A DNA stretch of 64,000 nucleotides from Candidatus Beckwithbacteria bacterium CG10_big_fil_rev_8_21_14_0_10_34_10. Its GTDB lineage: Bacteria; Patescibacteriota; Microgenomatia; UBA1400. The notes beneath the pieces are model-generated. The model had not been told where the DNA came from. It did no database searches and was given only the letters and a program-made list of their open reading frames with translations. Where the stretch lies: NCBI GenBank assembly GCA_002773945.1, contig PEZT01000016.1, positions 11,655 through 75,654 of the forward strand. Reading direction: 5' to 3'. Below, piece by piece: positions 1,742-32,147 of the stretch. Every line of letters begins with the position of its first letter. Within the stretch, counting starts at the first letter, position 1. A program made the position numbers and the translations under genes.

Positions 1742-1750
1742 TAATTCTTA

Positions 1751-2737
1751 TCATAGCAAAGAAGTAATTGCTTTGGCTAGTTTATCAGGGCTATGACGAA
1801 GATAACTTCTTTGAAGAACATCTCCCTTAGACTTCATCTTAATAGCCGGTGCTAAAAAATCTTTTCTTATTAGTTTAAAGTTATTATTGTTTTTCAAGTC
1901 ATCTTTAACTGGAAAGCCTTTTTCTTGTTTGTATAAATTTAAAACTTTATCTGGGATTTTACCAGTATTTAAAAGAACCAAATTAAGCTTTCTCCCTAAA
2001 TGTTTTTCTATTTCTTTAATATGATCCTGGGCCGTAAAATTAGGGGTTTGACCATATCTAGTCATTAGATTAACAATATAAATAATCTTGGCTTTTGAAT
2101 TTTGAATCGCTTTTTTGGTTCCTTCTATCACTAGATTAGGAAGAATGCTGGTATAAAGATCACCTGGCCCTAAAATTATTAAATCCGCCTCTTGAATCGC
2201 TTTTTTGGCTTTAAGATAGATTTTGGCCTTGGGTTTAGTACTAAGCTTAATAATTTTCTTTCCTCCTTGATGTTTTGGTTCATCAATTTCATGCTCCCCA
2301 ATAATTGTTTTTCCGTCCTCATAAGTGGCTTTTAATTGGATATTTGAGGTAGTCACTGGAAATATTTTGCCTTCAAGCCTAAAAATTCGAGCCGCTATTT
2401 CAACTGCCCTTGGTTCAGAATTAGTCAAATCAGTTAAAGCGGTTAGAATTAAGTTGCCTAAATTATGACCCTTTAAACCTTTGCCTTTAGAAAAACGGTA
2501 TAAAAGAATTTTTCTAATGTAGTCATCACCATTTTCTGCTTTTAAAGCGGCCAAGCACTGCCTCATGTCTCCCACTGGTAAAAAGCCAAATTCAGTTCTT
2601 AGTCTCCCGGTTGAGCCACCGCTGTCAGTTACACTGACAATGGCAGTTAAGCTAACCGGGTATTTTCTTAATCCTGAAAGGACTACAAAAGAACCAGTTC
2701 CACCGCCAATGACAACTATTTTCTTTTTTTTCTTCAT
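1751..2737 (-). CDS. yvcK: YvcK/CofD-like gluconeogenesis factor (UPF0052)
   Basis: KIVVIGGGTGSFVVLSGLRK...VSVTDSGGSTGRLRTEFG...LGNLILTAL; classic YvcK N-terminal Rossmann fold and DxGGSxGRLR motifs. Confidence 0.8.
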   Translation of the reverse strand: MKKKKKIVVIGGGTGSFVVLSGLRKYPVSLTAIVSVTDSGGSTGRLRTEFGFLPVGDMRQCLAALKAENGDDYIRKILLYRFSKGKGLKGHNLGNLILTALTDLTNSEPRAVEIAARIFRLEGKIFPVTTSNIQLKATYEDGKTIIGEHEIDEPKHQGGKKIIKLSTKPKAKIYLKAKKAIQEADLIILGPGDLYTSILPNLVIEGTKKAIQNSKAKIIYIVNLMTRYGQTPNFTAQDHIKEIEKHLGRKLNLVLLNTGKIPDKVLNLYKQEKGFPVKDDLKNNNNFKLIRKDFLAPAIKMKSKGDVLQRSYLRHSPDKLAKAITSLL

Positions 2738-2786
2738 CTAATGAAATTATTATTCTTTATGTTAGACTTTATCCAACAAAGCTATT

Positions 2787-4556
2787 TTACTTAACCGTCA
2801 CACTTTTAGCCAGATTTCTGGGCTTATCTGGATCAGTCCCTCTACCTAAACCTAAATAATATCCTAGAAGCTGGCCCACAATAATATTAGGAATTAGGGT
2901 TAATTCTTTTAAGTCAGGTGTTTTAAAATGATAATCAAATACCAATGAGTTAAAAGGAGCCACTCCAATAATCTTGGCTCCTCTGGATTTTAACTCCATC
3001 GCACTGGACAAAACTTCCTCTTTAATTTTTTTTTGGCTGTCTAAAAGAGCAATACAGGGAGTTCCTTTTTGAATTAAGCTAATGACTCCGTGTTTTAACT
3101 CTCCCGAGGCAAAAGCTTCTGAATGAAGATAACTGGTTTCTTTAATTTTTAAGGCAAACTCCAGGGCCGCCGGATAATTTAAATGTTTACCAATTAGATA
3201 AATATCATTAGCGTCTAAAAGCATTTTAGCCAGCTTAATAATTTTTTCTTTAATTCCATTTTTAAACCATAATCTTAAAGATTTATCTAAAGATTTAATT
3301 TTTTTTCTTCCTAAGTCACCTTTCCCTTTAACAGAAGAAGAAAGTAAATATAAGGTGGCTAGTTGGCTGGTAAAAGCCTTGGTAGAGACAACCGCAATTT
3401 CCGGACCGGCTCCAACCGGTAAAGTAAAATCTGCTAATCTTTCTAAAGTAGAACCAGGGGCATTAACAATAGCGGCTATTAATGCCTTTTTTTGTTTGGC
3501 TTTTTTAACGGCAATTAAAGTGTCAGCGGTTTCTCCACTTTGGGAAATAGCTATAACGATTGTTTTAGAATTGCAAAACCTAGCAAATGGTAAAAACTCA
3601 TAAGCCCCATACGATTGAGCTTCGATTCCGGCATGGGCAAAAAAATACTCCGCCGCCTTAGCACAATAAGAAGCGGTTCCACAACCTAAAAGGATTACCT
3701 TCTTTCCTTTTTTAATTTTCAAACTTAGTTTTTTAATTACTTCCCTATTCAACTCCGCTGTTTTAGAAATGGTTTTTGGCTGCTCAAATATTTCTTTAAT
3801 TAAAAAGTGGGAATAACCGCCTTTTTGGGCATCTTCAACTTCCCAATTAACTATCTTAACTTTAATTCTTTTCTTCTTTCCTGTTTGAAGATTAAAAAAA
3901 CTGACTCCGTGTCTTTTTAAGACTACTCCTTCTCTATCTTTTAGAAAAACCGCTTTTTTAGTTTTCTTTAAAAAGGGAGTAACATCAGAGGCTAAAAAAT
4001 ATTCATCTTTTCCAATTCCCACCACCAAAGGAGAACCATCCCGACAAGCCAAAATTGTTTCTTTTTTTGAATCTAGAACACAAATAGCATTAGAACCAGA
4101 AAGAGCTTTAAAAGTAGAAAAAACTGCTTTTCTTAAAGACATTGTCTTTAATTTTTCTTCAATAAAATGAGCAATTACTTCTGTATCTGTTTCCGATCTA
4201 AACTGGTGGCCTTTTTTCTTTAATTCAGTTTTAATCTCCTGATAATTCTCCACAATTCCGTTGTGAATAACCGCTAATTTCCGGGAGCAATCTAAGTGAG
4301 GATGAGCATTACTATTAGTTACTCCTCCATGAGTGGCCCAGCGGGTATGGCCAATAGCAATGGAGCTTAAAGGAAGCTTGGTTTTAGCCTGGCCTATTTT
4401 CCCAATATGCTTTTCCACTTTTAATACTTGAGACCGAAGAGGTTTAACTGCCAAACCCCAGGAGTCATAACCCCGATACTCAAGTTTTTTTAATCCTTGA
4501 AAGACAAATTGACTCCCATTTTTAGATTTACCAATATAAGCTACTATTCCACACAT
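2787..4556 (-). CDS. glmS: glutamine--fructose-6-phosphate aminotransferase (isomerizing)
   Basis: N-terminal MCGIVAY (class II amidotransferase Cys1), two SIS domains, C-terminal ...SVTVK; 589 aa. Confidence 0.9.
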   Translation of the reverse strand: MCGIVAYIGKSKNGSQFVFQGLKKLEYRGYDSWGLAVKPLRSQVLKVEKHIGKIGQAKTKLPLSSIAIGHTRWATHGGVTNSNAHPHLDCSRKLAVIHNGIVENYQEIKTELKKKGHQFRSETDTEVIAHFIEEKLKTMSLRKAVFSTFKALSGSNAICVLDSKKETILACRDGSPLVVGIGKDEYFLASDVTPFLKKTKKAVFLKDREGVVLKRHGVSFFNLQTGKKKRIKVKIVNWEVEDAQKGGYSHFLIKEIFEQPKTISKTAELNREVIKKLSLKIKKGKKVILLGCGTASYCAKAAEYFFAHAGIEAQSYGAYEFLPFARFCNSKTIVIAISQSGETADTLIAVKKAKQKKALIAAIVNAPGSTLERLADFTLPVGAGPEIAVVSTKAFTSQLATLYLLSSSVKGKGDLGRKKIKSLDKSLRLWFKNGIKEKIIKLAKMLLDANDIYLIGKHLNYPAALEFALKIKETSYLHSEAFASGELKHGVISLIQKGTPCIALLDSQKKIKEEVLSSAMELKSRGAKIIGVAPFNSLVFDYHFKTPDLKELTLIPNIIVGQLLGYYLGLGRGTDPDKPRNLAKSVTVK

Positions 4557-4599
4557 TTAACTACAAAAAATCCCTAAGCCAAATTAAGGATTATTAATC

Positions 4600-4803
4600 T
4601 TAATATTTAGGTTCACCCATTGTTCCTAGTCCTATTTTAAGCTGTGCTGCTGTTTTTTCCGGCATAGGTAGTTCTCCACCTGAGCTCATTATCCTTTCCC
4701 ACTTAAAAAATTCTTCTAAATCAGCTACTGGCAAAATTAATTCTACTCCTCCATACCATGTTGAAACTAATGGTTGGTTTTCTCCTTTAATAACTTCTGC
4801 CAT
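4600..4803 (-). CDS. small hypothetical protein (67 aa)
   Basis: MAEVIKGENQPLVSTWYGGVELILPVADLEEFFKWERIMSSGGELPMPEK...; GGAG RBS 5 nt upstream of the ATG (GGAGTTTAAATG); sits 43 nt upstream of glmS; no recognisable family. Confidence 0.45.
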   Translation of the reverse strand: MAEVIKGENQPLVSTWYGGVELILPVADLEEFFKWERIMSSGGELPMPEKTAAQLKIGLGTMGEPKY

Positions 4804-4854
4804 TTAAACTCCAATCCAGGCAGATAATATATTTATAAATATTTCTATTTAAAA

Positions 4855-5016
4855 CTAAACGCCCACCGCCTCAAGTTTATCTAGTAACCCCATAGCATCC
4901 CATTGCCAATTAGTTAATTTAGCCACTCTTATTTCCCGTGCTTCATAAGTTTCAGAATAAAGGGGTTGCTCATCTATTACGCGCTGGGCATTTAAAATAG
5001 CGCCAGCACCTGCCAT
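4855..5016 (-). CDS. small hypothetical protein (53 aa), locally GC-elevated
   Basis: Not in the ORF track (below the size cutoff). My translation: MAGAGAILNAQRVIDEQPLYSETYEAREIRVAKLTNWQWDAMGLLDKLEAVGV*. AGGA RBS (AGGATATCGATG). Same strand as the neighbours. GC is about 44% by hand count versus about one third in flanking genes. Confidence 0.3.
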   Translation of the reverse strand: MAGAGAILNAQRVIDEQPLYSETYEAREIRVAKLTNWQWDAMGLLDKLEAVGV

Positions 5017-5106
5017 CGATATCCTATAAAGACGATCAAGGTTTTCTGCTGAAATTTTAACCCACCCCCTTATTGGATTTGTAATTTTTTACAGTGTTTA
5101 TACATC

Positions 5107-6423
5107 CTATTTTACTCTTTTAATATTAGCCCCTAATTGTCTTAGTTTTTCATCTAGTTTCTCATAACCCCTATCAATATGAGATATATTTTCCAAAGTT
5201 GATTTGCCTTTGGCTATCAGGGCGGCCATAACTAGGGTAGCACCAGCCCTAAGATCAGTGACTTTAAGGTTGGCTCCTTTTAAAGGAGTGGGGCCAGTAA
5301 TTTTAGCCGCGTGAAGGTTTTTATCAGTTTCCGGATTATCAAACTCATAGTATTTTTTAAGATTCCTAACTTCTGGATTAAAAAGTTTTATTTTAGCGCC
5401 CATTTTTTCAAGTTCATGACAGTATTGAAAGCGGTTATTATGAACTCTTTCAATAACTTGGCTTATGCCCTTAGCTTGAGTCATTAAGATTGTCCATAAG
5501 GGCTGCCAGTCAGTCATAAAGCCTGGGGCTGGTTGAGTCTCTATATTAGTGGCTTTCAACTGCTTTTCATACCAAAATCTCATTCCAAACTTGTTAGTTT
5601 CAAACTTAGCTCCAATTTCATCCAGCTTTTCTAAAAAAGCTTTAAGGTGGCTTTTTTTAGCATTTTCCAACACTATATCTCCTTTAGTGGCTAAAGCGGC
5701 GACTGCATAAGAAATGGCTTCGTTTCTATCCGGCATCACTTGATGAATTGCCCCTCCCAGTTTTTTAACTCCATTTATTATTATTTCTTCTCCAGGGCCT
5801 CTTTTAATTTCTCCTCCCATTTTATTTAAAAACTCAATTAAATCATCAATTTCCGGCTCTTGACCAGCATTTTCAATTACGGTTCTACCTTTAGCCTTGG
5901 CCGCTACAATAATCATCGCTTCAGTACCAGTATGGGTTTTTTTGTCAAACCTAAAGGTAGTTCCTTTAAGATTTTTTCCGGTTATATGAATATTTTCTCC
6001 CTGATAGGAAACTTTAGCTCCCAAGCTTTTTAAAGCTTCTAAGTGGCGGTTAACCGGCCTTGTTCCTAAAACACATCCCCCTGGCAGGGGAATGATGGCT
6101 TTTCCAGATCGGGCTAAAAGCATGGCCGCAAAAAGAGTCGCCGCTCTAGTTTTTTTGCCTTCTAACTTCGGCAATTGGCTCATTTTTAAACCATTGGCTT
6201 CAATAAAAACAGTTCTTTCACCGCATTTCTTAACCTTAACTCCTATTTTCTTTAAAATTGCTTGGGTGTTTTCCACGTCTGAAATATAGGAGAGGTTGAG
6301 AATCCTTGACTCCCCTTCTCCAAGGGAAGCAGCAATCATTAATTTAAAGCCGGCATTTTTTGCTCCCCCTAATCTAACTGCTCCCATTAAAGGGTTACCA
6401 CCCTCAATCACTAATCTGGCCAT
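5107..6423 (-). CDS. murA: UDP-N-acetylglucosamine 1-carboxyvinyltransferase
   Basis: MARLVIEGGNPLMGAVRLGGAKNA...LPGGCVLGTRPV (catalytic Cys loop)...; 438 aa, EPSP-synthase fold. Confidence 0.9.
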   Translation of the reverse strand: MARLVIEGGNPLMGAVRLGGAKNAGFKLMIAASLGEGESRILNLSYISDVENTQAILKKIGVKVKKCGERTVFIEANGLKMSQLPKLEGKKTRAATLFAAMLLARSGKAIIPLPGGCVLGTRPVNRHLEALKSLGAKVSYQGENIHITGKNLKGTTFRFDKKTHTGTEAMIIVAAKAKGRTVIENAGQEPEIDDLIEFLNKMGGEIKRGPGEEIIINGVKKLGGAIHQVMPDRNEAISYAVAALATKGDIVLENAKKSHLKAFLEKLDEIGAKFETNKFGMRFWYEKQLKATNIETQPAPGFMTDWQPLWTILMTQAKGISQVIERVHNNRFQYCHELEKMGAKIKLFNPEVRNLKKYYEFDNPETDKNLHAAKITGPTPLKGANLKVTDLRAGATLVMAALIAKGKSTLENISHIDRGYEKLDEKLRQLGANIKRVK

Positions 6424-8721
6424 TTAAAATTCTCCTTTTAAGAAAACTTCTTGCTCTAGCCTTAAAGAAAACTTTTCTTTAACTTTTTTTTGAATTAACG
6501 AGACTAATTTTAACACATCTTTGGCTTTGGCATTGGATTTGTTAAGAATAAAGCTGGCATGCTTTTGGCTGACTTGCGCCCCTCCAACTGTCATTCCCTT
6601 AAAACCAGCTTTTTCAATTAAAAATCCAGCTGAATTAGAAGGAGGATTTTTGAAAAAACAACCAGCGCTTTTTTCATTCATCGGATGGTATTTATTTCGA
6701 TATTTAATTGTCTCTTTTACTATTTTCTCAATTTTAAACCTATTTCCTTTTTTAAGTTTGAAAAATAATTTAAGAATAATATCCTTACTTTTTTGAAAGG
6801 TAGAATAATCATAGGAAAACTTTATCTCTTTCCTTTTTAACGTTTTTACTTTTTTCTGTTTTAAATTATAGACTTCTACTTTTTGAATTAGATCTGCCAT
6901 GTATTTATCTTTAAAGTGAGAATTATTAAATACCGCTCCCCCAATAGTTCCGGGCAAACCGGCAAAGTATTCAAACCCAGATAAGCTATTTTCTAAGCCA
7001 TAGCTAACTAGCTGAGAGGTAAAAGCGCCACTCTCCACCCCTAAAAGATCATTATCTTTATCTATTGTCTGGGCCCGGTTAATAATTACTAAGCCCTTTA
7101 TTCCCAGATCACTAATTAAAACATTAGTTCCCCCACCAATAACCTCAAATTTAATCTTTTTTTGAAGGGCCCATTTTATGGCCTTAACTAACTGAGATTT
7201 AGTTTTAACCAGAGTGAAGTATTCGGCCTTACCCCCAATATTAAAGCTGGTAAAAGAGGCTAATGGCTTGTTTTTTTTTATTTTAATGTCTTTTTCTTTA
7301 CTTTTCCTAATATTTCCTAATAAATTTTTATGCCAGTTAAAAATATCACCGGCTCCAAGAGTTATAATTAAATCATTATCCTTAACATTACTTTTAAGAA
7401 ACTCCCCTGCTTCGGGAAAAGATTTTTTGTAAAAAACATTAGGATTATACTTTTTAATCCTCTCTGCTAATATTTCTCCGGAAACATTAGGATCTATTTG
7501 TTCTCGGGCTGAAGCATAAATATCAGTAATGATAACTAGGTCGGCTGAGTTAAAGGCTTTAGCAAAATCTTTTAATAAAGCTTTGGTCCGAGAATAAGTA
7601 TGAGGTTGAAAAATAGCGATTATCCTTTTGTCTTTAAAATTGGCTTTAACAGCTTTTAAAGTTGCCTGAAGCTGACAAGGATGATGAGCATAATCATCAA
7701 AGAACAAAATCCCATTTATTTTTTTAATTAATTCAAACCTTCTTTTAGTGCCTTTAAAGTTTTTTAAACCTTTTATAATTGTCTTTTCATCTATATTAAA
7801 AAACTTAGCCATAATAAAAGCGCCAACTGCATTTTTTAGATTAAATTCTCCGGGAACAGAAAGACTAATTTTAACTGGCTTGCCTTTTTTAGGTTTTATT
7901 AAAAATTCACTTTTCCCCTGCTTTTGCCATAAAAGCTTTATTTGCCAAAAAGCCTCCTTAGTCATCCCAAAGGTTTGAACTGGAACATTTAAGGTCTTTA
8001 TAAGTTTTTTAACCTCTGGACTATCAACCCCGGCGACTAAAAGACCGTTAGGAGGTATTTTTTTAGCAAAGTTTTTAAAAGCTTTTAAAGTCTCAAAAAT
8101 ATCTTTATATACATCAGGATGATCATAGGCAATGTTTGTCATTACCATTGCTTTGGGATTCTGGTAATCAAAACGGGGTCTTTTATCTTGGGGAGAAGAA
8201 AAATACTCATCAGCTTCAGCAATAAAATGCTGACCTTGAAAATCATATTTACCGGAAGCTTCTAGGTTGGAAATTCCCCCGGCACCAACGGCAAAACTAG
8301 GATTGAGTTTAGCGGCTTTAAAAATACTAACTAACATCGCACTTGTAGTTGTCTTCCCTCCTACGCCGCAAACAGATATACCAATCTTAGAATCCATTAG
8401 CAAACCCAAAGCCTGGGCATGAGACATTACCGGAATATTCATTTTTTTTGCAGCCATTACTTCTGGATTTTCTTCTCCCCCATGAGCGGCTGTAAAAACA
8501 AGCAAGTCAACTAACTTAAAATTTGATTCTTTAAAACCTTTGTGCCAAGAAATCCCGGCTTTTTTTAAGGTTTCATCAGTGACAAAATATTCCTCAATAT
8601 CACTCCCGCTTATCTCAATCCCCATATCCTTAAAACACAAAGCCAAAGCTGTCATTCCCACTCCCTTAATCCCTGTCATATGGATTTTTTTAATATTGTT
8701 AAAATCTATTTTGTTATTCAT
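6424..8721 (-). CDS. murC-murB: fused UDP-N-acetylmuramate--L-alanine ligase (MurC, N-terminal about 460 aa) and UDP-N-acetylenolpyruvoylglucosamine reductase (MurB, C-terminal about 300 aa)
   Basis: N-terminus: IHMTGIKGVGMTALA...ISVCGVGGKTTTSAML...LGAGDIFNW (MurC). After a KSKEKDIKIKKNK linker: PLASFTSFNIGGKAEYF...GLPGTIGGAVFNN...SAGCFFKNP...GGAQVSQKHASFILN (type II MurB FAD-binding and substrate domains). A single 765-aa ORF with no internal stop. Confidence 0.85.
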   Translation of the reverse strand: MNNKIDFNNIKKIHMTGIKGVGMTALALCFKDMGIEISGSDIEEYFVTDETLKKAGISWHKGFKESNFKLVDLLVFTAAHGGEENPEVMAAKKMNIPVMSHAQALGLLMDSKIGISVCGVGGKTTTSAMLVSIFKAAKLNPSFAVGAGGISNLEASGKYDFQGQHFIAEADEYFSSPQDKRPRFDYQNPKAMVMTNIAYDHPDVYKDIFETLKAFKNFAKKIPPNGLLVAGVDSPEVKKLIKTLNVPVQTFGMTKEAFWQIKLLWQKQGKSEFLIKPKKGKPVKISLSVPGEFNLKNAVGAFIMAKFFNIDEKTIIKGLKNFKGTKRRFELIKKINGILFFDDYAHHPCQLQATLKAVKANFKDKRIIAIFQPHTYSRTKALLKDFAKAFNSADLVIITDIYASAREQIDPNVSGEILAERIKKYNPNVFYKKSFPEAGEFLKSNVKDNDLIITLGAGDIFNWHKNLLGNIRKSKEKDIKIKKNKPLASFTSFNIGGKAEYFTLVKTKSQLVKAIKWALQKKIKFEVIGGGTNVLISDLGIKGLVIINRAQTIDKDNDLLGVESGAFTSQLVSYGLENSLSGFEYFAGLPGTIGGAVFNNSHFKDKYMADLIQKVEVYNLKQKKVKTLKRKEIKFSYDYSTFQKSKDIILKLFFKLKKGNRFKIEKIVKETIKYRNKYHPMNEKSAGCFFKNPPSNSAGFLIEKAGFKGMTVGGAQVSQKHASFILNKSNAKAKDVLKLVSLIQKKVKEKFSLRLEQEVFLKGEF

Positions 8722-8726
8722 TTAAT

Positions 8727-9470
8727 TTATTCTCTTAAACCAATTAAACTGGCAAACCGGCCTTTTTTCTCCTTATTCTTTAACTCCCGAAAATGGGAAA
8801 AATAGTTTTTAGAACAACAGGTACAAATCTCATTTACCTCTATATTATCCCTTTTTATCCCTAAACTTTGCAACTTGCTGACTAAAAAACTACTTAAGTC
8901 TAAAGAAACCAAACCATTTCTCTCTTTTTTGATAAAATCTTTCCATTCTGGCAATTTACTTTGAACTAATGATCTGTGTCTAAAACAGCAGGCTTTAATT
9001 CCAGGACCTAGAGCCACAATAATATCTTTAAGGTTTGAATTAAACTCAGTCGCCATTAAAAAAAGAGTTTCTAAAAATATTTTCTCAATTGCTCCCCGCC
9101 AGCCAAGATGAACCATGGCAATTACCTTGTTTTTAGGATCATAAAAAAAGACGGGCAGGCAATCAGCGGTTTTTACCATCAAAAAAACATTTCTCTTATT
9201 AGTAACAAGGCCATCAGTTGAAGCAATCGGCTTAATAATTGATTTAACTGTTTTTATTATTTTAACCTGACTGCCATGAACCTGATCCATTTCTATAATC
9301 TGGTTTAAATTAATTTTAAGACTCTTAGCTATTTTCTGCCTGTTTTTTAAAACTTCTTTTTTTAAGCCATATTTATAGGAAACATTACCAAAGCTCCTGG
9401 GGAAAACAGCCGCCGTAAGATGACTAAACTTTTTTAACTTTTTAAACTGAAGAAATTCATTTTTACTCAT
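8727..9470 (-). CDS. pgeF: YfiH/PgeF family (peptidoglycan editing factor / purine nucleoside phosphorylase, DUF152)
   Basis: VKTADCLPVFFYDP...MVHLGWRGAIEKI...ACCFRH; the conserved C / H..GWRG / C..H metal-site pattern of YfiH. Confidence 0.8.
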   Translation of the reverse strand: MSKNEFLQFKKLKKFSHLTAAVFPRSFGNVSYKYGLKKEVLKNRQKIAKSLKINLNQIIEMDQVHGSQVKIIKTVKSIIKPIASTDGLVTNKRNVFLMVKTADCLPVFFYDPKNKVIAMVHLGWRGAIEKIFLETLFLMATEFNSNLKDIIVALGPGIKACCFRHRSLVQSKLPEWKDFIKKERNGLVSLDLSSFLVSKLQSLGIKRDNIEVNEICTCCSKNYFSHFRELKNKEKKGRFASLIGLRE

Positions 9471-9473
9471 TGA

Positions 9474-10220
9474 CTAATAAACTCTAGTCTTCATCAAACT
9501 CTCAGCTTTTTTAAGCTGATCTTTAGTATTAATTCCTTGAAAATATTCCCCCTTAGAAACCTTTAAACTCCCAACTTTCTTATTTTTCTTAATGGCCAAA
9601 CTAACAATATCCGTCAAGTAGTATTCTTTTTTAATCGGGTCTTTTTTTATTAACCTTAAATATTTTTTTATAAACTCGACTTTAAAACAATAACAGCCAG
9701 TGTTAATTTCTTTAATTTTCTTTTGGGTGGCAGTAGTACTTTTTTCCTCAATAATACCTTTTAGCTTCCCTTTTTCATCTCTTATAATTCTTCCCAAGCC
9801 AAAAGGGTTTTTTTTAACAACAGTTAAAATAGACAAGTCTTTTTTATTTAATAAATGATATTTTAAAAGCCTTTTAATCACTCCAGAAGGATAAAAAGCC
9901 GTATCATCAGAATAACAGACAAAAATATTTTTCGTTTTTAGGGGAATTTCTTTTAAGGCGCATTTTAAGGCGTGCGCAGTTCCCAGTCTTCTTCTTTGGT
10001 CAACATAAATTAGCTTTTTTCCAAAATATTTAATGATTGAGTCTTTTTTAAAACCAACTACTAGAAGAATTTTTTCAAGTCCCACATTATTTAAAAGATC
10101 AATTGTATAGCCAATCATGGGCTTGCCTGCCAAAGGATACATGACTTTGTTTATATTCCGGGCATTAATTCTAGAGCCTTTGCCAGCCGCTAAAACAACG
10201 GCCATCATATTCTTAATCAT
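9474..10220 (-). CDS. sugar-1-phosphate nucleotidyltransferase, stand-alone equivalent of the GlmU N-terminal (UDP-GlcNAc pyrophosphorylase) domain
   Basis: AVVLAAGKGSRI...LAGKPM...QRRRLGTAHAL...EINTGCYCF...EYYLTDIV aligns block by block to the E. coli GlmU N-domain (ILAAGKGTRM / QAEQLGTGHAM / EINTGILV / EFYITDII). 248 aa with no LbH repeats. Confidence 0.8.
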   Translation of the reverse strand: MIKNMMAVVLAAGKGSRINARNINKVMYPLAGKPMIGYTIDLLNNVGLEKILLVVGFKKDSIIKYFGKKLIYVDQRRRLGTAHALKCALKEIPLKTKNIFVCYSDDTAFYPSGVIKRLLKYHLLNKKDLSILTVVKKNPFGLGRIIRDEKGKLKGIIEEKSTTATQKKIKEINTGCYCFKVEFIKKYLRLIKKDPIKKEYYLTDIVSLAIKKNKKVGSLKVSKGEYFQGINTKDQLKKAESLMKTRVY

Positions 10221-10756
10221 AGTTTATTTATCTCTCTAAAACTTGTTATTATTAAATCAGGTTTAAATAAAATATTTTCTAAATGGTTTTTTTCATCCTT
10301 TTTTTTATTCCGCCAGACCAAAACAGTTTTTATTGTACCATTTATTGATTTGGCTGTCTTTAGGTTTTCTAACTTATCATCAAAATACCAAATTTCCAAA
10401 TCAGGGGGAATCTTTTGGAAAATATTTTTTAGCTTTTTTGCTTTTGGAGGTGAAAAAATATAGGAGTTTTTAGAACTAAAGAATTTATTAAGCCCAGAAG
10501 CTTTAAGTTTATATCGCTGTCCCCTGATATCTCCTTGAGAAAATAGATAAATCTTATTTCCTTTTTTCAACCAACCATTAAGCTTAGGGTAAACATCTTT
10601 ATACACTAGATCCTGAGGTTCAATTTCTGTCCAATTAATTCTTTTAACTATTTTTAAACAAAAAGGTTCACCCTTTTTATATCCCTTATCTATCCTTTTT
10701 AAAAAATCGGTATTAAATAAAACTCTGTCTAAATCAAAAATTAAAGCTTTTTTCAT
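10217..10756 (-). CDS. HAD-superfamily small phosphatase (capless, GmhB/KdsC-sized)
   Basis: Motif I FDLDRVLF (DxDxV), motif IV YFDDKLENL; 179 aa; ATGA start/stop overlaps with both neighbours. Confidence 0.55.
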   Translation of the reverse strand: MKKALIFDLDRVLFNTDFLKRIDKGYKKGEPFCLKIVKRINWTEIEPQDLVYKDVYPKLNGWLKKGNKIYLFSQGDIRGQRYKLKASGLNKFFSSKNSYIFSPPKAKKLKNIFQKIPPDLEIWYFDDKLENLKTAKSINGTIKTVLVWRNKKKDEKNHLENILFKPDLIITSFREINKL

Positions 10757-11376
10757 AGATTTGGTTTTAAAATTGAATTACTGGAATAAAATCCTGGTTT
10801 TGGATTATATAAGGGATAAACTAAACAACTTTTTCCTAAAACAGTTCCTGGGTTTAAACAACAATTTATTCCCAGTTGGCTATTATCACCAATAATGGCT
10901 CCAAATTTTCTAAAGCCTGTAGAAATAAGTTTTTCCTTGTCCTTAATTTTTATTTCTTTTTTATCAAACCTGAAATTGGCTATTTTACTCCCGCCGCCAA
11001 AATTAACCTTGTTTCCAATCAGGCTATCACTAATATAATTAAAGTGTTTGGCAGAAGACCTGGACATAATAATGGAGTTTTTAATTTCACTCCTGCCTAA
11101 TTTACAATTGTCACCAATAATGACGGGTCCTCTTAAATAAGTAAAGGGTCCAATTTGACAATTAGAACCTATAATAACCTGGCCTTCAATTTGAACTGTT
11201 TTATCAATTATTGACTGAGCACCAACAAGAATTTTCTTTTTACTGGATTTCAGCTTTTGGCTAACATATTTATCCAGCTTTGCTAAGGCTTGCCAGGGAA
11301 AAATAATGTTTTTAAAAATTTCTATTTCTGAAAATTTTTTTAAATCAAAAAAATAGGGGGTCTTAGGAAACTTCAT
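10753..11376 (-). CDS. left-handed beta-helix acetyltransferase, stand-alone equivalent of the GlmU C-terminal (GlcN-1-P N-acetyltransferase) domain
   Basis: Hexapeptide repeats IIGSNCQIGPFTYLRGPVIIGDNCKLG...SAKHFNYISDSLIGNKVNFGGGSKIANF...AIIGDNSQLGINCCLNPGTVLG, comparable to GlmU [30 protein letters not shown]. Confidence 0.7.
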   Translation of the reverse strand: MKFPKTPYFFDLKKFSEIEIFKNIIFPWQALAKLDKYVSQKLKSSKKKILVGAQSIIDKTVQIEGQVIIGSNCQIGPFTYLRGPVIIGDNCKLGRSEIKNSIIMSRSSAKHFNYISDSLIGNKVNFGGGSKIANFRFDKKEIKIKDKEKLISTGFRKFGAIIGDNSQLGINCCLNPGTVLGKSCLVYPLYNPKPGFYSSNSILKPNL

Positions 11377-12587
11377 TTTTTAAGCCTTTCTTTTAAAGCT
11401 TTGGTAACTGCTTTTTTATCAGACCAGGGGATTTCTTTTGTCCCAAAACACATTGATTCTTCATGACCTTTTCCAAAAATACCGACAAGGTCTTTTCTAC
11501 CAGCCATTTTAATAGCTAAATTAATAGCTTTCTGTCTATCTTTTTCAATTATTAATTTATTTTTGTCTTGACAACCCGAGCTTATTTCTTTAATAATTTT
11601 ATCCAAGCTTTCAGTCCGAGGATCTTCAGCTGTTAAGACTACTTTATCAGCCAGATTACAGGCAATTTTTCCCATCATTGGTCTTTTTTCTCGATCCCTT
11701 AAGCCAGCCGAGCCAAAAACTGCTATTAATCGGCCCTTTTTATCAATTCTTAAGGTTTTCAGGACGTTTTCCAAAGCATTAGGTGTATGAGCAAAATCAA
11801 CCATCACTTTAAAGTTTTGACCTAGGTAAATTTCCTCCATCCGACCTTCAACTCCTTTAAAATTACTTACCGCCCTTAAAATATTTTTATTAGGAATCTT
11901 TAGGATTTTTCCAACACTAATAGCCGCCAAACAATTAGCCAGATTAAAATTGCCTTTTAAATTAGTTTTAAATTGGTAGTTCAAAAGGTTATAGTCACCT
12001 TTTTTAAGTCCGTAAGAAATGATTCTCCCTAAAGATTGGCTTTTAAAATCCTCAAAACTTTGATCATCAATATTTAAAACTGAAAAACCGCTTTTTTTAA
12101 ACAGCTTGGCTTTAGCTTTAAGATAATTTTCTTTAGTCTTGTGATAATCCAAATGCTCATGAGAAACATTAGTTAAAACCGATATCTTAAAGTCGATTCC
12201 TAAAAAACGATACTGGTCCAGACCATGAGAAGTCACTTCTAAAACTAAGTATTCATAGCCTTTATTTAAGATGAGTTTAAGAATTTTTTGTAATTTCCAA
12301 GGATCTGGTGAAGTTACATGGAGGCCGGTGGAGAGATTCTGATCACCAATTTTGGCGGAAACTGTGGTTATTAAAGCAGTTTTGTAATTAGCTTTTTTTA
12401 AAATTTCGTAAATTAGCGTGCTTGTGGTTGTTTTGCCGTCAGTCCCAGTCACCCCAATAATCTTTAATTTTTTCCCGGGAAAGCGGTAATACAAAGCCGC
12501 TAAAAATGCCATAGGTAAATGGTAAAAAGTATTAATTACTTTCTGGGAAATTAAATTTTTTAAAAAACTAATTAATTTTTTTATCAT
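11373..12587 (-). CDS. murE: UDP-MurNAc-L-Ala-D-Glu--2,6-diaminopimelate (or L-Lys) ligase with a shortened N-terminal domain
   Basis: IIGVTGTDGKTTTS...LEVTSHGLDQYRF...TNVSHEHLDYHKT, comparable to E. coli MurE GVTGTNGKTTT / EVSSHGLVQHRV / NLSRDHLDYHG. Only about 40 aa precede the P-loop; 404 aa. Confidence 0.8.
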   Translation of the reverse strand: MIKKLISFLKNLISQKVINTFYHLPMAFLAALYYRFPGKKLKIIGVTGTDGKTTTSTLIYEILKKANYKTALITTVSAKIGDQNLSTGLHVTSPDPWKLQKILKLILNKGYEYLVLEVTSHGLDQYRFLGIDFKISVLTNVSHEHLDYHKTKENYLKAKAKLFKKSGFSVLNIDDQSFEDFKSQSLGRIISYGLKKGDYNLLNYQFKTNLKGNFNLANCLAAISVGKILKIPNKNILRAVSNFKGVEGRMEEIYLGQNFKVMVDFAHTPNALENVLKTLRIDKKGRLIAVFGSAGLRDREKRPMMGKIACNLADKVVLTAEDPRTESLDKIIKEISSGCQDKNKLIIEKDRQKAINLAIKMAGRKDLVGIFGKGHEESMCFGTKEIPWSDKKAVTKALKERLKK

Positions 12588-12628
12588 TTTTTATGTTAAT
12601 AAAAAATTAAATTGAATTGTATTTAATT

Positions 12629-12661
12629 TAATATAATATTCTTATTAAGAATATTATATAA
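12629..12661. promoter_or_regulatory. 33-bp near-perfect inverted repeat (16-1-16) in the 82-bp ftsI-murE intergenic spacer
   Basis: TAATATAATATTCTTA-T-TAAGAATATTATATTA, read directly from the sequence; all A/T except two C/G pairs. Confidence 0.4.
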
Positions 12662-12669
12662 CAACTAGG

Positions 12670-14424
12670 CTAACTTGGAGGAATTCCATAATATAGTAAA
12701 AGTTCTTTAGTAATGGAAAAAAATAAAGGGGCGGCTGTTTCTGATCCCCAAGGAGATGAGCTTGGTTCTCTTAATTTAACTAACATTACAAATTTAGGTT
12801 CTTTGGCCGGGGCAAAACCTACAAAAGAAGCAATTGTTTTTTCTGTATCATAGTGTCCAGCGACTGGAATCTGGGCCGTACCCGTTTTACCGGCCACCTG
12901 ATAGCCTTTTATTTTTAACCACTTTGTTTCTCCTTTTTCCACTGCCTGAACCATCATTTCAGTTATTATCTTGGCTGTTTTTGGCTTAATTACTTCTCTT
13001 AATACTTCTGGCTCAATTTTTATTCTCTCACCTGAAGAAATTATTTCCTTGACTACCTGAGGCTTCATTAGTTTGCCGCCATTAGCAATCGCTCCAGTGG
13101 CTCTTAAAAGCTGAGTCCCACTAACCGCTAAACCCTGACCAAAAGAAGCCGTCGCTAAATCAACATTGTTCCAAAAACTCTTATCTTTTAAAAGCGCTTC
13201 TGTTTCTCCCTGAAGATCAATCTCTGTTAAACTACCAAAACCAAAATCAGTTAAATACTGAAAAAAATCATCCAGGCCAAGCTTCCGCGAAACAAAAACC
13301 ATTCCTAAATTATCTGAGTTCTGAATCACCTTGTCCATGGTGGAATCAGGATGATATTTTTCATCCCAGGTTTTAATTTCATATTTATCAATCTTTAAAG
13401 GCTTATCACAAATATCGCACTTGGTATTACTTTTGACTACCTCTTTATCTAGGGCAGCAGCCATCACAAAAATCTTGAAAGTTGAACCTGGCTCATATGA
13501 ATCAGAAATAAGATCATTTATAAACTTATCTTTATCAAAGAGATAATATTTCTTAGGATCAAAACTGGGGTAATTGGCTAAAGCAATCACTCCTCCTGTC
13601 CAGGGATCCATAATCATAACTGAACCTGATTTAGCCCCATATTTTTCCACGGCTTTTTCAAGCTTTTCTTCAACCATAAATTGAATTGACCGATTGAGAT
13701 GAAGGACCAAATTTTGGCCATCTTTTTTTTCCTGACTGAAAAAAGAACCAATTAAAATCGGTTTGTTAGCCGCATCAGTTTCTTGAGTTAAAAGACCTTG
13801 TCTGCCCCTAAGCTCATTATCATAATAGCCTTCCAAGCCAAAATAGCCGGTGTCTTGTCCGGCTTCATTTTTTCCCAAAAAACCTAAAAGATGAGCCGCC
13901 ATAGAAGCTTCAGGATAATAACGGATTTGCTCCTCTTCAAAACCCAAACCTTTAAGCTTCAAATCTTCTATTTTTTCTTTATCTTCCTTAAGGATCTTAT
14001 GTTTAAGAATCACCCAGGATAAATTATCCAACTGAAGTTTTTCTAAAAGATTTTCCTCTTCTTTTTTGATTAAATCCTTTTTCAAGGGCTTTTTTTTACC
14101 CTCTTGACTGGCTTCCTCTTCAAAAAAAGTAAAAGGGGCTAATTTTAAAGCTATCTCTTTTACTGGTTTATTAATTTCTCTTAAAGAAGTAAAAAGCAAA
14201 TAAGCGGTTTTATTACTGGCTAAAGGAAAGTTGTCACTGGCTAGAATTTCCCCTCTTTTAGACTGGATCTCTTTTTCAGAATAATATTGGTTTTTGGCTA
14301 AATTAGCCAGACTTTCTCGGGCTAAAACCTGCCAATAAAAAAGCCGGGAAATAATTGCTATAAAAAGAAGGATAAAAATAATCTTCAGGCTTTGTAAGCG
14401 CCAAAAAAAAGGCGGTTTTTTCAT
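12670..14424 (-). CDS. ftsI: penicillin-binding protein, class B transpeptidase (FtsI/PBP2-like)
   Basis: N-terminal transmembrane segment; STFK (SxxK), SDN (NSDNLG) and KTGTA active-site triad; position directly after ftsL in an mraZ-rsmH-ftsL cluster. Confidence 0.85.
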   Translation of the reverse strand: MKKPPFFWRLQSLKIIFILLFIAIISRLFYWQVLARESLANLAKNQYYSEKEIQSKRGEILASDNFPLASNKTAYLLFTSLREINKPVKEIALKLAPFTFFEEEASQEGKKKPLKKDLIKKEEENLLEKLQLDNLSWVILKHKILKEDKEKIEDLKLKGLGFEEEQIRYYPEASMAAHLLGFLGKNEAGQDTGYFGLEGYYDNELRGRQGLLTQETDAANKPILIGSFFSQEKKDGQNLVLHLNRSIQFMVEEKLEKAVEKYGAKSGSVMIMDPWTGGVIALANYPSFDPKKYYLFDKDKFINDLISDSYEPGSTFKIFVMAAALDKEVVKSNTKCDICDKPLKIDKYEIKTWDEKYHPDSTMDKVIQNSDNLGMVFVSRKLGLDDFFQYLTDFGFGSLTEIDLQGETEALLKDKSFWNNVDLATASFGQGLAVSGTQLLRATGAIANGGKLMKPQVVKEIISSGERIKIEPEVLREVIKPKTAKIITEMMVQAVEKGETKWLKIKGYQVAGKTGTAQIPVAGHYDTEKTIASFVGFAPAKEPKFVMLVKLREPSSSPWGSETAAPLFFSITKELLLYYGIPPS

Positions 14425-14810
14425 TAGGGATTAAGAGCGACTGGAACTTTACTGCTTAGATTTTTAACCATTGGATTTTTATTAAAACCTTTTTCTAAAG
14501 CCATATCTTCTAGTTTAGCCAAGCCGCCTCTTGAAGCGGTCTCACTTTTTACCTGGCTGTTTCTTTCCTCAATTAAGGCTATTTCTTTTTCAATTAGTTT
14601 TAAGTTCCTACCATAAGTCGCCAACCGATTAGAAAGGTAAATTTGGGCCAGAGATAAAATCGCCACTAAAACAAAAGGCAGAAAATATAACAAGTTGCCT
14701 TTGGTTATATTTTTACTGCTACCCTTAGCTTGGCGCTTCTTGAGCGTCGATTTTCTTCCCGCTCCTTTAGAGTGGGAACAACCACCTTTTTGGTTAAAAT
14801 CTGTAAGCAC
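14424..14810 (-). CDS. ftsL: FtsL-like cell-division protein (single TM plus coiled coil). The true start is probably internal, possibly a TTG near 14700.
   Basis: LLYFLPFVLVAILSLAQIYLSN followed by KLIEKEIALIEERNSQVKSE; the listed 5' end overlaps the rsmH 3' end by about 100 nt in another frame; position between rsmH and ftsI. Confidence 0.6.
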   Translation of the reverse strand: MLTDFNQKGGCSHSKGAGRKSTLKKRQAKGSSKNITKGNLLYFLPFVLVAILSLAQIYLSNRLATYGRNLKLIEKEIALIEERNSQVKSETASRGGLAKLEDMALEKGFNKNPMVKNLSSKVPVALNP

Positions 14811-15634
14811 TTTTCAGTTTCTCCTTTTTTAAAATAATTTTTAACTATTTTATCTTCTAAACCGTGAAAGCTTATAACTACTAACCGGCCACCTGATTCT
14901 AATACCCTGGCCGCTTGTTTTAATCCCTTTTTTAAATTGTTTAACTCATCATTAACAGCTATTCTTAGACTTAAAAAAACTTTAGTCGCCGGGTGAATCT
15001 TGCTTCTCCCCCTGTATTTCCGCCAATATACTTTTTTGACAATCTCCGCTAGTTGTCTAGTAGTCCTAATTGGCTCTCTTTTCCTATCCAAAACAACCGC
15101 TTTAGCAATTGGTAAAGAAAGTGGTTCTTCACCCATTTCAGAAAAAAGTTTAATAAGTTCTTTTTCATGTAAGCCATTTATTAAATCTCCTGCTTTAACT
15201 TTTAAACTCGGGTCCATCCGCATATCTAAAGATTCATCAATTTGAAAAGAAAACCCTCTTTCATCCGTCTCTAGCTGATGGGAGGAAACTCCTAAATCAA
15301 ACAGGATCCCGGAAACTTTAGAAATCTTATTTTTTTTAAGGATTTCCTCTAAATTAGCAAAGTTTCCCTGGCAAATAGTATAAGAAGCATTAGGGCAGAC
15401 ATTTTTAAAATGCTTCTTAACATATGCTATTGCCTCTGGGTCTTGGTCTAAGCCAAAAACATGACCTCCTTTCTTAATGATCCTTAAACTGTGACCACCG
15501 CCACCCAAAGTGGCATCTAGATAAAGCTTGCCTGGCTTTACCTTTAAAAATTCTACTGCTTCATTTAAAAGTACTGGCTGATGAAATAGTCTATTTTTGG
15601 TCACCTTCATCAAGCCTCTGACTAATTTTTTCAA
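14705..15634 (-). CDS. rsmH: 16S rRNA (cytosine1402-N4)-methyltransferase
   Basis: HQPVLLNEAVEFL...YLDATLGGGGHS...GILFDLGVSSHQLE...RLVVISFHGLEDKIVK. Confidence 0.9.
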   Translation of the reverse strand: MKKLVRGLMKVTKNRLFHQPVLLNEAVEFLKVKPGKLYLDATLGGGGHSLRIIKKGGHVFGLDQDPEAIAYVKKHFKNVCPNASYTICQGNFANLEEILKKNKISKVSGILFDLGVSSHQLETDERGFSFQIDESLDMRMDPSLKVKAGDLINGLHEKELIKLFSEMGEEPLSLPIAKAVVLDRKREPIRTTRQLAEIVKKVYWRKYRGRSKIHPATKVFLSLRIAVNDELNNLKKGLKQAARVLESGGRLVVISFHGLEDKIVKNYFKKGETEKCLQILTKKVVVPTLKEREENRRSRSAKLRVAVKI

Positions 15635-16028
15635 TATTTCCCTTTAAATATTCCTGATGTTCCTCCCAATCATTTAAATTCCACATTTCCACCCGGTTTC
15701 CCATGCCTACAAAAACAATCTGTTCTCCTAGTGAAGCATAAGAGCGCAAAGGGGGAGGCACAATAAATCTTCCCTGAGAATCAAGTTCAATTTCAAAAGC
15801 ATTGCCTAAAAGATACCGGTCTGTTTCTCGAGCGGCTCCAGAGATAAAAGGTTTATTAACAATCCCACCGGCTACCTTTTCCCAAGAAGAATATTTAACA
15901 ATCATTAAGGATTTTTCAAAACCGGCCGTAATAATGACTTTTTTACCTAGAAGTGAACGAAATTTAGCTGGTAAAGCTGTTCTTCCTTTATCTGAATCTA
16001 ATTTAGCTGAAAAATTACCGATTAACAT
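15591..16028 (-). CDS. mraZ: transcriptional regulator MraZ
   Basis: MLIGNFSAKLDSDKGRTALPAKFR... with a duplicated MraZ/SpoVT-AbrB-like half (second ELDSQGRFIVP); 145 aa. Confidence 0.9.
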   Translation of the reverse strand: MLIGNFSAKLDSDKGRTALPAKFRSLLGKKVIITAGFEKSLMIVKYSSWEKVAGGIVNKPFISGAARETDRYLLGNAFEIELDSQGRFIVPPPLRSYASLGEQIVFVGMGNRVEMWNLNDWEEHQEYLKGNIEKISQRLDEGDQK

Positions 16029-16064: not shown

Positions 16065-16093
16065 ATTTTTATATATTTTCACGGGCATGTCAA
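16065..16093 (-). promoter_or_regulatory. candidate sigma70-type promoter for the mraZ operon
   Basis: Perfect TTGACA (reverse complement of 16088-16093) followed 13-17 nt later by an A/T-rich block TATATAAAAAT containing several weak -10 candidates (TATAAA / TAAAAT); spacing is ambiguous. Confidence 0.3.
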
Positions 16094-16261
16094 GAGGGAA
16101 ATTAATTTAAATTGAAGTATTATAGAAAGATAGTTTCCCCATGTTAACGCGCTAATATTGCTCATTAAAAAAAAGAAGCGTCGCTATTGACACTCTTTTT
16201 AATAAACAATTAAATAAGATTATACTAAGAAGCTTCTCCTTAGTCAATACTATGGGTTAAT

Positions 16262-31553: not shown

Positions 31554-32147
31554 TTATTGAAAAAGCCTAGCCCTGCCCAAGCGATATTTTAATTTACTGA
31601 CGCCTCTTTTTTTAATTTCTCTGGCTGGAACACCACCAACAACTGTCATTTCTGGAATATCTTTGGTTACTACTGCCCCAGAACCAACCACTGCTCCTCT
31701 ACCAATTTTAACTCCTGGCAAAATAATTACCCTAGCACCTATAAAACAATAATCGCCAATCTCAACCGGCTTTTCTACTGGTTTAAAATCATCAGAATGA
31801 ACATCATGCTGACTGTTGTAAATTAAAACCTGAGAAGCAATGGCCACATGATCACCAATCTTTAAAGAATCTCTGCCATCTAAAAAGCAATGATCGCCAA
31901 TAATCGTATCTTTACCAATAGAAATATTCTTGGGTTGAAAAAATCTAGCCCCCATATGAATAGTTGAACCCTTGCCAATTTTAATGCCGCTTAAGCGGTA
32001 ACAAAAATTGCGAAAACAGTGAAAGGGAACATAACCAACTAAACCTAAAAGCATGACTTTAAAATCAAGGTAATAGCTATAAAAACGGTTAAAAACCTTT
32101 TTAGATATCTCTTCTGATGATAATATATTTCCCATTTTATCTTTCAT
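31554..32147 (-). CDS. hexapeptide-repeat sugar O-/N-acetyltransferase (LbH)
   Basis: IGDHCFLDGRDSLKIGDHVAIASQVLIYN...IGDYCFIGARVIILPGVKIGRGAVVGSGAVV. Confidence 0.75.
   Translation of the reverse strand: MKDKMGNILSSEEISKKVFNRFYSYYLDFKVMLLGLVGYVPFHCFRNFCYRLSGIKIGKGSTIHMGARFFQPKNISIGKDTIIGDHCFLDGRDSLKIGDHVAIASQVLIYNSQHDVHSDDFKPVEKPVEIGDYCFIGARVIILPGVKIGRGAVVGSGAVVTKDIPEMTVVGGVPAREIKKRGVSKLKYRLGRARLFQ

Follow-up and report, generated by a model that had tools for sequence, protein, structure and literature searches.

Here we analyse a 64,000-nt stretch of the genome of a Candidatus Beckwithbacteria bacterium, from the Microgenomates branch of the candidate phyla radiation (CPR). This stretch, hereafter the window, spans positions 11,655–75,654 of the forward strand of contig PEZT01000016.1 (assembly GCA_002773945.1), has a GC content of about 32% and carries nearly all of its genes on the minus strand. 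Its dcw/mur cluster houses three consecutive genes, which encode an LbH acetyltransferase, a protein of the HAD superfamily and a nucleotidyltransferase (NTP-transferase). A preliminary description had listed the same three open reading frames (ORFs), and we find them where it placed them:

10753–11376, minus strand: LbH acetyltransferase, 207 amino acids (aa), partial match to TIGR03992
10217–10756, minus strand: HAD protein, 179 aa, recognised by HAD motifs and fold
9474–10220, minus strand: NTP-transferase, 248 aa, matching the N-terminal half of NF010934

GlmU, an essential enzyme and a target for antibacterials, is usually presented as a bacterial protein whose two domains are obligately fused. 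In the window, the two GlmU activities are predicted to lie on separate polypeptides rather than on one N-to-C polypeptide: there are two genes, a third stands between them and the acetyltransferase gene comes first, as the preliminary description had observed. The junction sequences contain three ATGA stop/start overlaps (MurE/LbH, LbH/HAD and HAD/NTP-transferase), so that the HAD gene is indeed translationally coupled on both sides.

The LbH protein contains a Hexapep domain (E 1e-18) and matched positions 246–389 of the 393 positions of TIGR03992 (Arch_glmU; E 1.6e-51). This match, confined to C-terminal positions, scored 175.5 bits and falls short of the 292.1-bit cut-off for a full-length member. 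Bacterial glmU models matched at only about 1e-18, TIGR01173 giving 65.6 bits against a cut-off of 366.85. The closest sequence in the PDB was S. tokodaii ST0452 (E 1.5e-31, 32–34% identity), which was also the closest fold when a predicted structure (pLDDT 95.5) was searched with Foldseek (E 2e-14, about 200 of the 207 residues aligned). In a profile alignment, LbH residues R82, K99, H111, Y114, N125 and N134 align to R333, K351, H363, Y366, N377 and N386 of H. influenzae GlmU, which we take to be the residues for glucosamine-1-phosphate (GlcN-1-P) binding and acetyl transfer. The catalytic His and the GlcN-1-P-binding residues of a GlmU C-domain are therefore all aligned; the six LbH residues are invariant across 18 standalone homologues, and H308, Y311 and N331 of ST0452 are identical to their LbH counterparts. 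These similarities suggest that the LbH protein is a standalone GlcN-1-P N-acetyltransferase of the ST0452/archaeal type, and not of the bacterial GlmU lineage.

The likeness to ST0452 (PDB 2GGO/5Z09; TIGR03992) includes an N-terminal helical segment. LbH residues 1–45 form short helices in the model and align (W28) to ST0452 residues 209–245, the end of the nucleotidyltransferase domain. Because they match this boundary, we read them as a probable remnant of a deleted N-domain. Unlike ST0452, the window protein has otherwise lost the entire nucleotidyltransferase domain, whereas a related locus retains the fused form (L009; comparison loci are designated by L numbers). Standalone LbH homologues are widespread (>500 matches) and are mostly solitary genes in non-CPR bacteria; the Paceibacterota gene is solitary as well. 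In other organisms a standalone LbH gene adjoins glmM (L082) or glmS-glmM (L089). In the latter locus, glmS seems to be split or frameshifted into ORFs of 232 and 385 aa (3059–4812); glmM and a standalone LbH of 199 aa follow immediately downstream. The pairing of a dcw-embedded LbH with a solo GlmU N-domain appears to be a feature of the Microgenomates side.

The NTP-transferase showed the opposite affinity. Over its whole length it matched positions 1–240 of the 447 of NF010934 (E 2.7e-62, 211 bits), whereas the archaeal-type model gave only 110 bits. Its best models are all GlmU (150–210 bits), well above RmlA, GalU, ManC and MurU, although TIGR01173 (207.9 bits) remains under its cut-off of 366.85. 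Aligned end to end with the sequences of GlmU structures, it keeps LAAGKG(S/T)R, the next Lys, Q..LGTAHA, the Mg-site Asp, GxGRI, EINTG and EYYLTD; as read in the window, these motifs are LAAGKGSR, NK, Q..LGTAHA, GLGRI, EINTG and EYYLTD. The LxxGxGTxM...K signature and the GlcNAc and Mg motifs of a GlmU N-domain are thus present. We infer that this protein is a standalone GlcNAc-1-phosphate (GlcNAc-1-P) uridylyltransferase of the bacterial GlmU-N type. A MurU/MupP recycling pair was considered and rejected: MurU (NF045761, cut-off 250) lay outside the top 25 models, and the cluster encodes no AmgK-type kinase. The L009 orthologue of the NTP-transferase scored 37.6 bits against the same MurU model.

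Judged by these affinities, the module is a mosaic of an ST0452-type LbH protein and a bacterial GlmU N-domain. The preliminary description had aligned both proteins block by block to bifunctional GlmU; this stands for the NTP-transferase and its bacterial counterpart, while LbH aligns far better to the archaeal type than to the bacterial one. The predicted chemistries and folds are the two of bacterial bifunctional GlmU (E. coli, H. influenzae, S. pneumoniae; TIGR01173), but the window has two polypeptides, an acetyltransferase gene that comes first, scores of 208 and 66 bits against a cut-off of 367 and an LbH protein of another lineage. Each half of E. coli GlmU is reportedly active in vitro when isolated, which makes a natural two-gene form biochemically plausible.

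How did the acetyltransferase gene come to stand first? In L009, MurE is followed by a 425-aa fused NTP+LbH protein (Arch_glmU 292.4 bits, cut-off 292.1), the HAD protein and a separate 245-aa NTP-transferase. The window NTP-transferase is 45% identical to this solo protein and 24% identical to the N-domain of the fused one. Tandem genes are also found near glmS in archaeal-style glmM/glmU-like/glmU-like/glmS operons, where a fused NTP+LbH gene precedes a second NTP-transferase-containing gene: glmM, fused NTP+LbH and NTP-transferase in L060 and L069; glmM, fused gene, second fused gene and glmS in L068 and L080. The window, L001, L007 and L071 instead have a trimmed LbH gene, then a solo NTP-transferase. 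When the window proteins were compared with those of the tandem loci, (i) LbH matched the LbH domain of the first gene (E ~1e-40); and (ii) the NTP-transferase scored 77–83 bits against second-gene N-domains and 55–64 bits against first-gene N-domains. The tandem operons differ from the CPR loci in having a canonical GlmM and no HAD, while the CPR loci have HAD, no visible GlmM and one domain trimmed per gene.

The gene order of the tandem operons offers an explanation for the acetyltransferase-first arrangement. The starting point would have been two tandem GlmU-type genes, of which the first, an archaeal/ST0452-type NTP+LbH gene, would have lost its N-domain and left the 45-residue remnant, and the second would be the bacterial GlmU-N-type nucleotidyltransferase, which carries no LbH. 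With reciprocal domain loss in such a pair, the reversed order would be inherited and not made by rearrangement. We regard this history as somewhat favoured; a possible alternative is that a bacterial GlmU-N gene was recruited independently. The preliminary description had instead proposed that one GlmU was split and reversed, an idea that does not fit an archaeal-type LbH, a bacterial-type NTP-transferase and the tandem intermediate in L009.

The three genes belong to one co-directional run on the minus strand (1,025–16,028), which contains in addition:

15591–16028, minus strand: MraZ (ORF and translation)
14705–15634, minus strand: RsmH (ORF and translation)
14424–14810, minus strand: FtsL-like ORF (ORF and translation)
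12670–14424, minus strand: FtsI (ORF and translation)
11373–12587, minus strand: MurE, 404 aa (TIGR01085, 430 bits)
8727–9470, minus strand: PgeF, peptidoglycan editing factor of the YfiH family (TIGR00726, 170.5 bits, cut-off 141)
6424–8721, minus strand: MurC-MurB fusion, 765 aa (TIGR01082 murC, residues 12–467; NF010480 murB, residues 474–763)
5107–6423, minus strand: MurA (TIGR01072, 442.6 bits)
2787–4556, minus strand: GlmS, glutamine--fructose-6-phosphate aminotransferase (GATase_6/7 and two SIS domains)
1751–2737, minus strand: YvcK/GlmR-family UDP-N-acetylglucosamine (UDP-GlcNAc)-binding protein (TIGR01826, 310.1 bits, cut-off 196)
1025–1741, minus strand: alpha/beta-hydrolase, 238 aa (weak EstV-lipase/BioH-like matches)

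At the head of the cluster, the orthologues in L001 bear Pfam MraZ, Methyltransf_5, PBP_dimer and Transpeptidase domains. The PgeF gene begins 3 nt downstream of the NTP-transferase gene. A Joint Genome Institute contig of the same organism (L014) extends the left edge of the window by 9 kb, adding MurF, FemAB, MraY, MurI, MurD, FtsW and MurG and bringing the stretch covered by our search for glmM to about 73 kb of genome. In the window and this extension, glmS, yvcK, murA, murB-C, murE, murF, murD, murI, mraY, murG, ftsW and ftsI all run in the same direction, and their predicted products cover nearly all steps up to lipid II. GlmS is the first enzyme of the UDP-GlcNAc branch and MurA its first committed consumer. 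The setting in UDP-GlcNAc and peptidoglycan precursor synthesis suggested by the preliminary description is borne out by glmS, yvcK/glmR, murA-F, mraY and murG, co-directional in one cluster. A promoter and terminator scan gave the counts expected from shuffled sequence, apart from several good sites grouped upstream of mraZ, where the best minus-strand promoter-like sites lie (16065–16247).

Several further features of the cluster were seen. The yvcK/glmR gene sits directly after glmS; in B. subtilis, GlmR stimulates GlmS. The alpha/beta-hydrolase gene is wedged between yvcK and murF, in the same place as in L095, and the order YvcK, alpha/beta-hydrolase, MurF, FemAB is kept in L095 and L014. 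MurC and MurB are one ORF in the window and two separate genes in L001, L008 and L095. MurE lacks the N-terminal, UDP-binding Mur ligase domain, its NCBIfam alignments beginning at about profile position 88; it lies 82 nt from ftsI, and the MurE proteins of relatives are likewise short (401–437 aa). In the 550-nt gap between murA and glmS (4557–5106), two short ORFs are called (53 and 67 aa in L014) and no Rfam family reaches threshold, the glmS ribozyme included.

This setting bears on the possibility that the three genes are paralogues devoted to some other sugar, perhaps for the glycan cluster of the window, with the true bifunctional glmU encoded elsewhere. The standalone LbH family is large and its members mostly stand alone in bacteria outside the CPR, where a normal glmU can be presumed; a 30-kb glycosylation cluster lies in the window; and ST0452 is reportedly promiscuous toward sugar-1-phosphates. 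Yet the three genes lie outside the glycan cluster: murE flanks them on one side and pgeF-murC-murB-murA on the other, in a single translationally coupled run that has glmS and yvcK further downstream, and this placement is kept in L001, L007, L009, L012 and L095. The uniformly GlmU-type models of the NTP-transferase and the invariant GlcN-1-P-site residues of LbH also speak against another sugar, and no second glmU was found in the ~73 kb. We therefore consider a different-sugar role improbable.

The glycan-assembly cluster itself (~18900–51300) encodes a DUF4012 protein, a Bac_transf priming transferase, many GT1, GT2 and GT4 enzymes, PMT_2-type transferases, a Wzy_C ligase-like protein, a flippase and two epimerase/dehydratases (45426–47316). 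It also holds a second LbH acetyltransferase gene (31554–32147) and a ManC-like guanylyltransferase gene (21693–22781). Two adjacent ORFs with no Pfam match (42971–44278, plus strand, 435 aa; 44299–45429, plus strand, 376 aa) lie beside the sugar epimerase genes, on the strand opposite to most of the window.

What is the HAD protein? Its sequence is identical to the NCBI entry "hypothetical protein COT75_02745". In a 13-member family alignment, the motif residues D8, D10, K105, D126 and D127 are invariant, S73 is nearly so, and G75, Q80, K83 and D167 are also invariant; the DLDRV...DD motifs read earlier (D8/D10 and D126-D127) are thus conserved. An AlphaFold (AF2) model (pLDDT 93.4, pTM 0.89) places the four motifs on a Rossmannoid core, as in the HAD superfamily, and Foldseek matched it to HAD structures with probability 1.00; the Pfam PF00702 score, 23.6 bits, is just under the cut-off of 26.4. 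The preliminary description had taken the protein to be capless. In the model, however, three short helices (16–22, 34–39 and 47–50) occupy the C1 cap position in an insert of about 35–40 residues, so that the protein, as modelled, carries a miniature C1 cap. The insert varies in length among orthologues (proteins of 177–214 aa) and is longer in the Levybacteria-type members (204–214 aa).

This architecture bears on the classification. The top Foldseek matches were 2P11 (function unknown), YfnB, PH1655 and NANP; haloacid dehalogenases are among the profile and fold matches, with putative beta-phosphoglucomutase (beta-PGM)-like proteins lower down. We scanned the 13 family members against NCBIfam and found every match to a curated model below its cut-off: HAD-IIIC in 11/13, CTE7 in 10/13, the YjjG/YfnB pyrimidine nucleotidase in 6/13, PynA and enolase-phosphatase in 5/13 each, the PpaX pyrophosphatase in 3/13 and beta-PGM in 1/13. 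These weak affinities place the protein nearest to small-capped, C1-capped subfamily-I-like HADs. With members of that group (2P11, B. subtilis YfnB, PH1655 and NANP; YjjG/PynA; PpaX) it shares the core and the four motifs, but identities are 13–19%, scores lie below cut-off, the cap is cut to three short helices and the dcw/UDP-GlcNAc gene context is unique to the window's family.

Profile classification as GmhB or KdsC, which the preliminary description had raised, failed: HAD-IIIA and hisB_Nterm models were each touched by one of the 13 members (E 0.05–0.06), and neither GmhB nor KdsC appeared among the top 50 fold matches or in the profile-versus-PDB matches. A capless HAD-IIIA phosphatase (GmhB, KdsC or HisB-N) was rejected on this near-absence of matches together with the C1 insert. 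The same observations bear on a GmhB-like bisphosphatase scheme, analogous to the heptose route GmhA-HldE-GmhB, in which a kinase would phosphorylate glucosamine-6-phosphate (GlcN-6-P) at C1 and the HAD protein would strip the 6-phosphate to leave GlcN-1-P. The size of the protein (179 aa) resembles that of GmhB, it adjoins the nucleotidyltransferase in 5/9 loci and GlmS has SIS domains, as GmhA does. GmhB is capless, however, the fold search returned C1-capped subfamily-I HADs in its stead, and none of the clusters encodes a kinase, which leaves this scheme very unlikely.

The family is small. An exhaustive HMMER search of 1.84 billion cluster representatives found 64 representatives at E<1e-3 and 12 at E<1e-10, a word-indexed homology search returned two matches with the single sequence and six with the profile, and no functional name occurred among the homologues found by these sequence and profile searches. 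In a species-representative genome set that does not include the window's genome, the HAD pattern matched one distant locus, L006. We compared the gene context of the HAD family in nine independent loci, the window included:

Window: LbH upstream, HAD, NTP-transferase downstream
L007: LbH upstream, HAD, NTP-transferase downstream
L008: LbH upstream, HAD, PgeF downstream
L009: fused GlmU upstream, HAD, NTP-transferase downstream
L010: MurE upstream, HAD, PgeF downstream
L012: YvcK and GNAT upstream, HAD, NTP-transferase downstream
L095: MurE upstream, HAD, NTP-transferase downstream
L003: LbH upstream, HAD, YvcK downstream
L017: LbH upstream, HAD, YvcK downstream

The HAD gene lies beside peptidoglycan or UDP-GlcNAc genes in all nine loci, and overlaps its upstream neighbour in eight and its downstream neighbour in six. 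HAD identities among loci are 26–45% and the GC content of the loci ranges from 0.29 to 0.46, from which we conclude that the linkage is old and maintained. The LbH-HAD-NTP order recurs in L007, whose HAD protein is only 45% identical to that of the window; together with the constant context, this recurrence argues that the arrangement is not due to chance. In the Levybacteria-type loci, which lie outside the dcw cluster, HAD still travels with LbH and YvcK. The HAD protein belongs to a rare, unnamed family of Microgenomates-type CPR bacteria, tied to dcw/UDP-GlcNAc clusters. Other assemblies that carry it include GCA_054028795.1, GCA_964591815.1 and GCA_001783735.1; GCA_964589815.1 represents a relative that lacks it. 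In the low-GC relative L012, a 106-aa GNAT protein (4684–5004) takes the slot held elsewhere by LbH and may represent a non-homologous swap of the acetyltransferase.

The HAD gene is nevertheless optional. In the closest relative, L001 (LbH 55% identical), the order is MurE, LbH, NTP-transferase and PgeF with no HAD between, and in L071 LbH is likewise followed directly by the NTP-transferase. Conversely, HAD occurs without any acetyltransferase in L010 and L095, with a fused GlmU in L009 and with the GNAT protein in L012. The split GlmU arrangement can thus dispense with HAD, since L001 and L071 keep both partner genes without it, and these loci and the varying partners elsewhere do not support the interposed step of the preliminary description as an obligatory one between the two GlmU reactions.

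Could the HAD gene then be a passenger, selectively neutral or without relation to its neighbours, for instance one for a generic phosphatase with a housekeeping role that merely landed in the operon? Its absence from the L001 cluster and its changing immediate neighbours would fit, as would a distant relative that stands among unrelated genes in L006. There, the relative adjoins GatA/GatB and a 939-aa ORF (9705–12524; contig labelled Gammaproteobacteria) in which a UvrD-type helicase is joined to a FemAB/GNAT-like domain. A passenger, however, would hardly keep its location in 9/9 loci at the identities and GC contents given above, retain 4-nt overlaps with its neighbours and all catalytic residues, and travel with LbH and YvcK in Levybacteria-type loci outside dcw; we hold this reading to be improbable. 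Instead, because of the conserved position, the translational coupling and the co-travel with LbH/YvcK outside dcw, we favour a HAD protein functionally tied to hexosamine/peptidoglycan precursor metabolism, as an accessory that is not required between the GlmU reactions. Consistent with an accessory role, its upstream partner may be LbH, fused GlmU, GNAT or MurE, and its downstream partner the NTP-transferase, PgeF or YvcK.

A further candidate role is that of the missing mutase. GlmM was found in none of the six frames of the ~73 kb, either with the PROSITE PS00710 signature or with phmmer, and both searches were empty in the window itself, in agreement with the preliminary description. The phmmer probe performs well, since it detected GlmM at E 1e-90 to 1e-117 in L015, L082 and L089. 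The HAD protein could accordingly be a HAD-fold phosphoglucosamine (or phospho-GlcNAc) mutase replacing GlmM non-orthologously, in which case the acetyltransferase, HAD and the uridylyltransferase would jointly turn GlcN-6-P into UDP-GlcNAc. Several observations fit: (i) the ~73 kb lack a GlmM-type gene and yet gather glmS, both GlmU activities, yvcK and almost every mur gene in one cluster; (ii) HAD is present in a peptidoglycan/UDP-GlcNAc module in every locus examined, and no glmM was seen in any HAD locus; (iii) canonical glmM adjoins the LbH or fused genes in the HAD-less loci L060, L068, L069, L080, L082 and L089; (iv) in L012, GNAT, HAD and NTP-transferase follow one another as in the eukaryote-type route; and (v) the DxD pair of nucleophile and acid/base is preserved. 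HAD-fold hexose-phosphate mutases exist, namely beta-PGM and eukaryotic phosphomannomutase, which share the superfamily and the DxD pair and offer a precedent for the chemistry.

Against a mutase, L001 keeps the cluster without HAD, and L010 and L095 carry HAD without an acetyltransferase. Specific similarity to the HAD-fold phosphomutases is essentially absent: the single member that touched the beta-PGM model (TIGR01990) did so at E 0.032, and beta-PGMs in the PDB matched the HAD profile at E ~0.7–0.8. Those enzymes have large caps, and known HAD mutases probably need a full cap over the bisphosphate intermediate, whereas the HAD cap is tiny and length-variable. In addition, glmM normally lies outside dcw clusters, and the glmM-bearing comparison loci are taxonomically remote (GC 0.42–0.67 versus 0.29–0.46). 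Moreover, the ManC-like gene in the glycan cluster implies a need for mannose-1-phosphate, and thus a phosphohexomutase somewhere in the genome. We consider the mutase unlikely, if less so than the other roles weighed above.

A hydrolase agrees better with the fold search, in which the top matches are phosphatases, dehalogenases and uncharacterised HAD hydrolases. By a narrow preference, we propose that the HAD protein is an accessory Mg2+-dependent phosphohydrolase (phosphomonoesterase) whose substrate would be some small phosphorylated metabolite from the same branch. It might act as a valve for surplus hexosamine phosphate next to the GlmS/GlmR control point, or might remove the by-products uridine monophosphate (UMP) or pyrophosphate. 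E. coli NagD/UmpH offers a precedent: the gene for this HAD phosphohydrolase belongs to the GlcNAc (nag) operon and its substrate, UMP, is a nucleotide by-product, so that it illustrates an accessory HAD outside the pathway proper in an amino-sugar operon. NagD is, however, a C2-capped type IIA HAD of another subfamily, and no similarity to the window protein was detected.

Taken jointly, the locus is best explained as a housekeeping UDP-GlcNAc module within an expanded dcw/mur operon, shaped by domain loss in tandem genes and joined by an accessory HAD, to which we give a probability of roughly 55%. GlmS would make GlcN-6-P and a mutase would supply GlcN-1-P, which the standalone LbH would acetylate to GlcNAc-1-P and the standalone NTP-transferase would uridylylate to UDP-GlcNAc. 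Within the same operon, MurA would consume this product and YvcK/GlmR would sense it. Several points weigh against this explanation. The preference of the NTP-transferase for second-gene N-domains is modest (~20 bits) and the tandem comparison loci come from distant, higher-GC organisms, which is why we place the domain-loss history only somewhat above even odds. Our search for glmM and for an intact glmU covered only ~73 kb of genome sequence. All other UDP-GlcNAc genes were recruited to the cluster and the mutase was not, and a phosphotransfer-capable enzyme stands exactly there, as the mutase hypothesis predicts. Finally, with all curated-family matches below cut-off, the substrate class of HAD is a guess.

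In the literature on CPR/Patescibacteria glmM, on split GlmU and on HAD proteins with dcw, we found no paper on the split arrangement or on the HAD family. The proteins currently bear labels such as "hypothetical", "NDP-sugar pyrophosphorylase family" and "glucose-1-phosphate thymidylyltransferase", and an automated reconstruction may count GlmU as absent by mistake. If the HAD protein were the mutase, a subset of Microgenomates-type CPR would have met an essential cell-wall reaction with a new kind of enzyme, and the HAD gene would complete a fully clustered gene set from fructose-6-phosphate to lipid II. As an overflow or by-product phosphatase, it would extend hexosamine homeostasis in minimal genomes only modestly. 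In either case, this CPR lineage is predicted to run the two GlmU reactions from separate genes of different ancestry, which it may have reached by a plausible stepwise route through tandem paralogues, an intermediate such as L009 and reciprocal domain loss, and it has drawn the UDP-GlcNAc branch (glmS, both predicted GlmU activities and yvcK) into its dcw operon.

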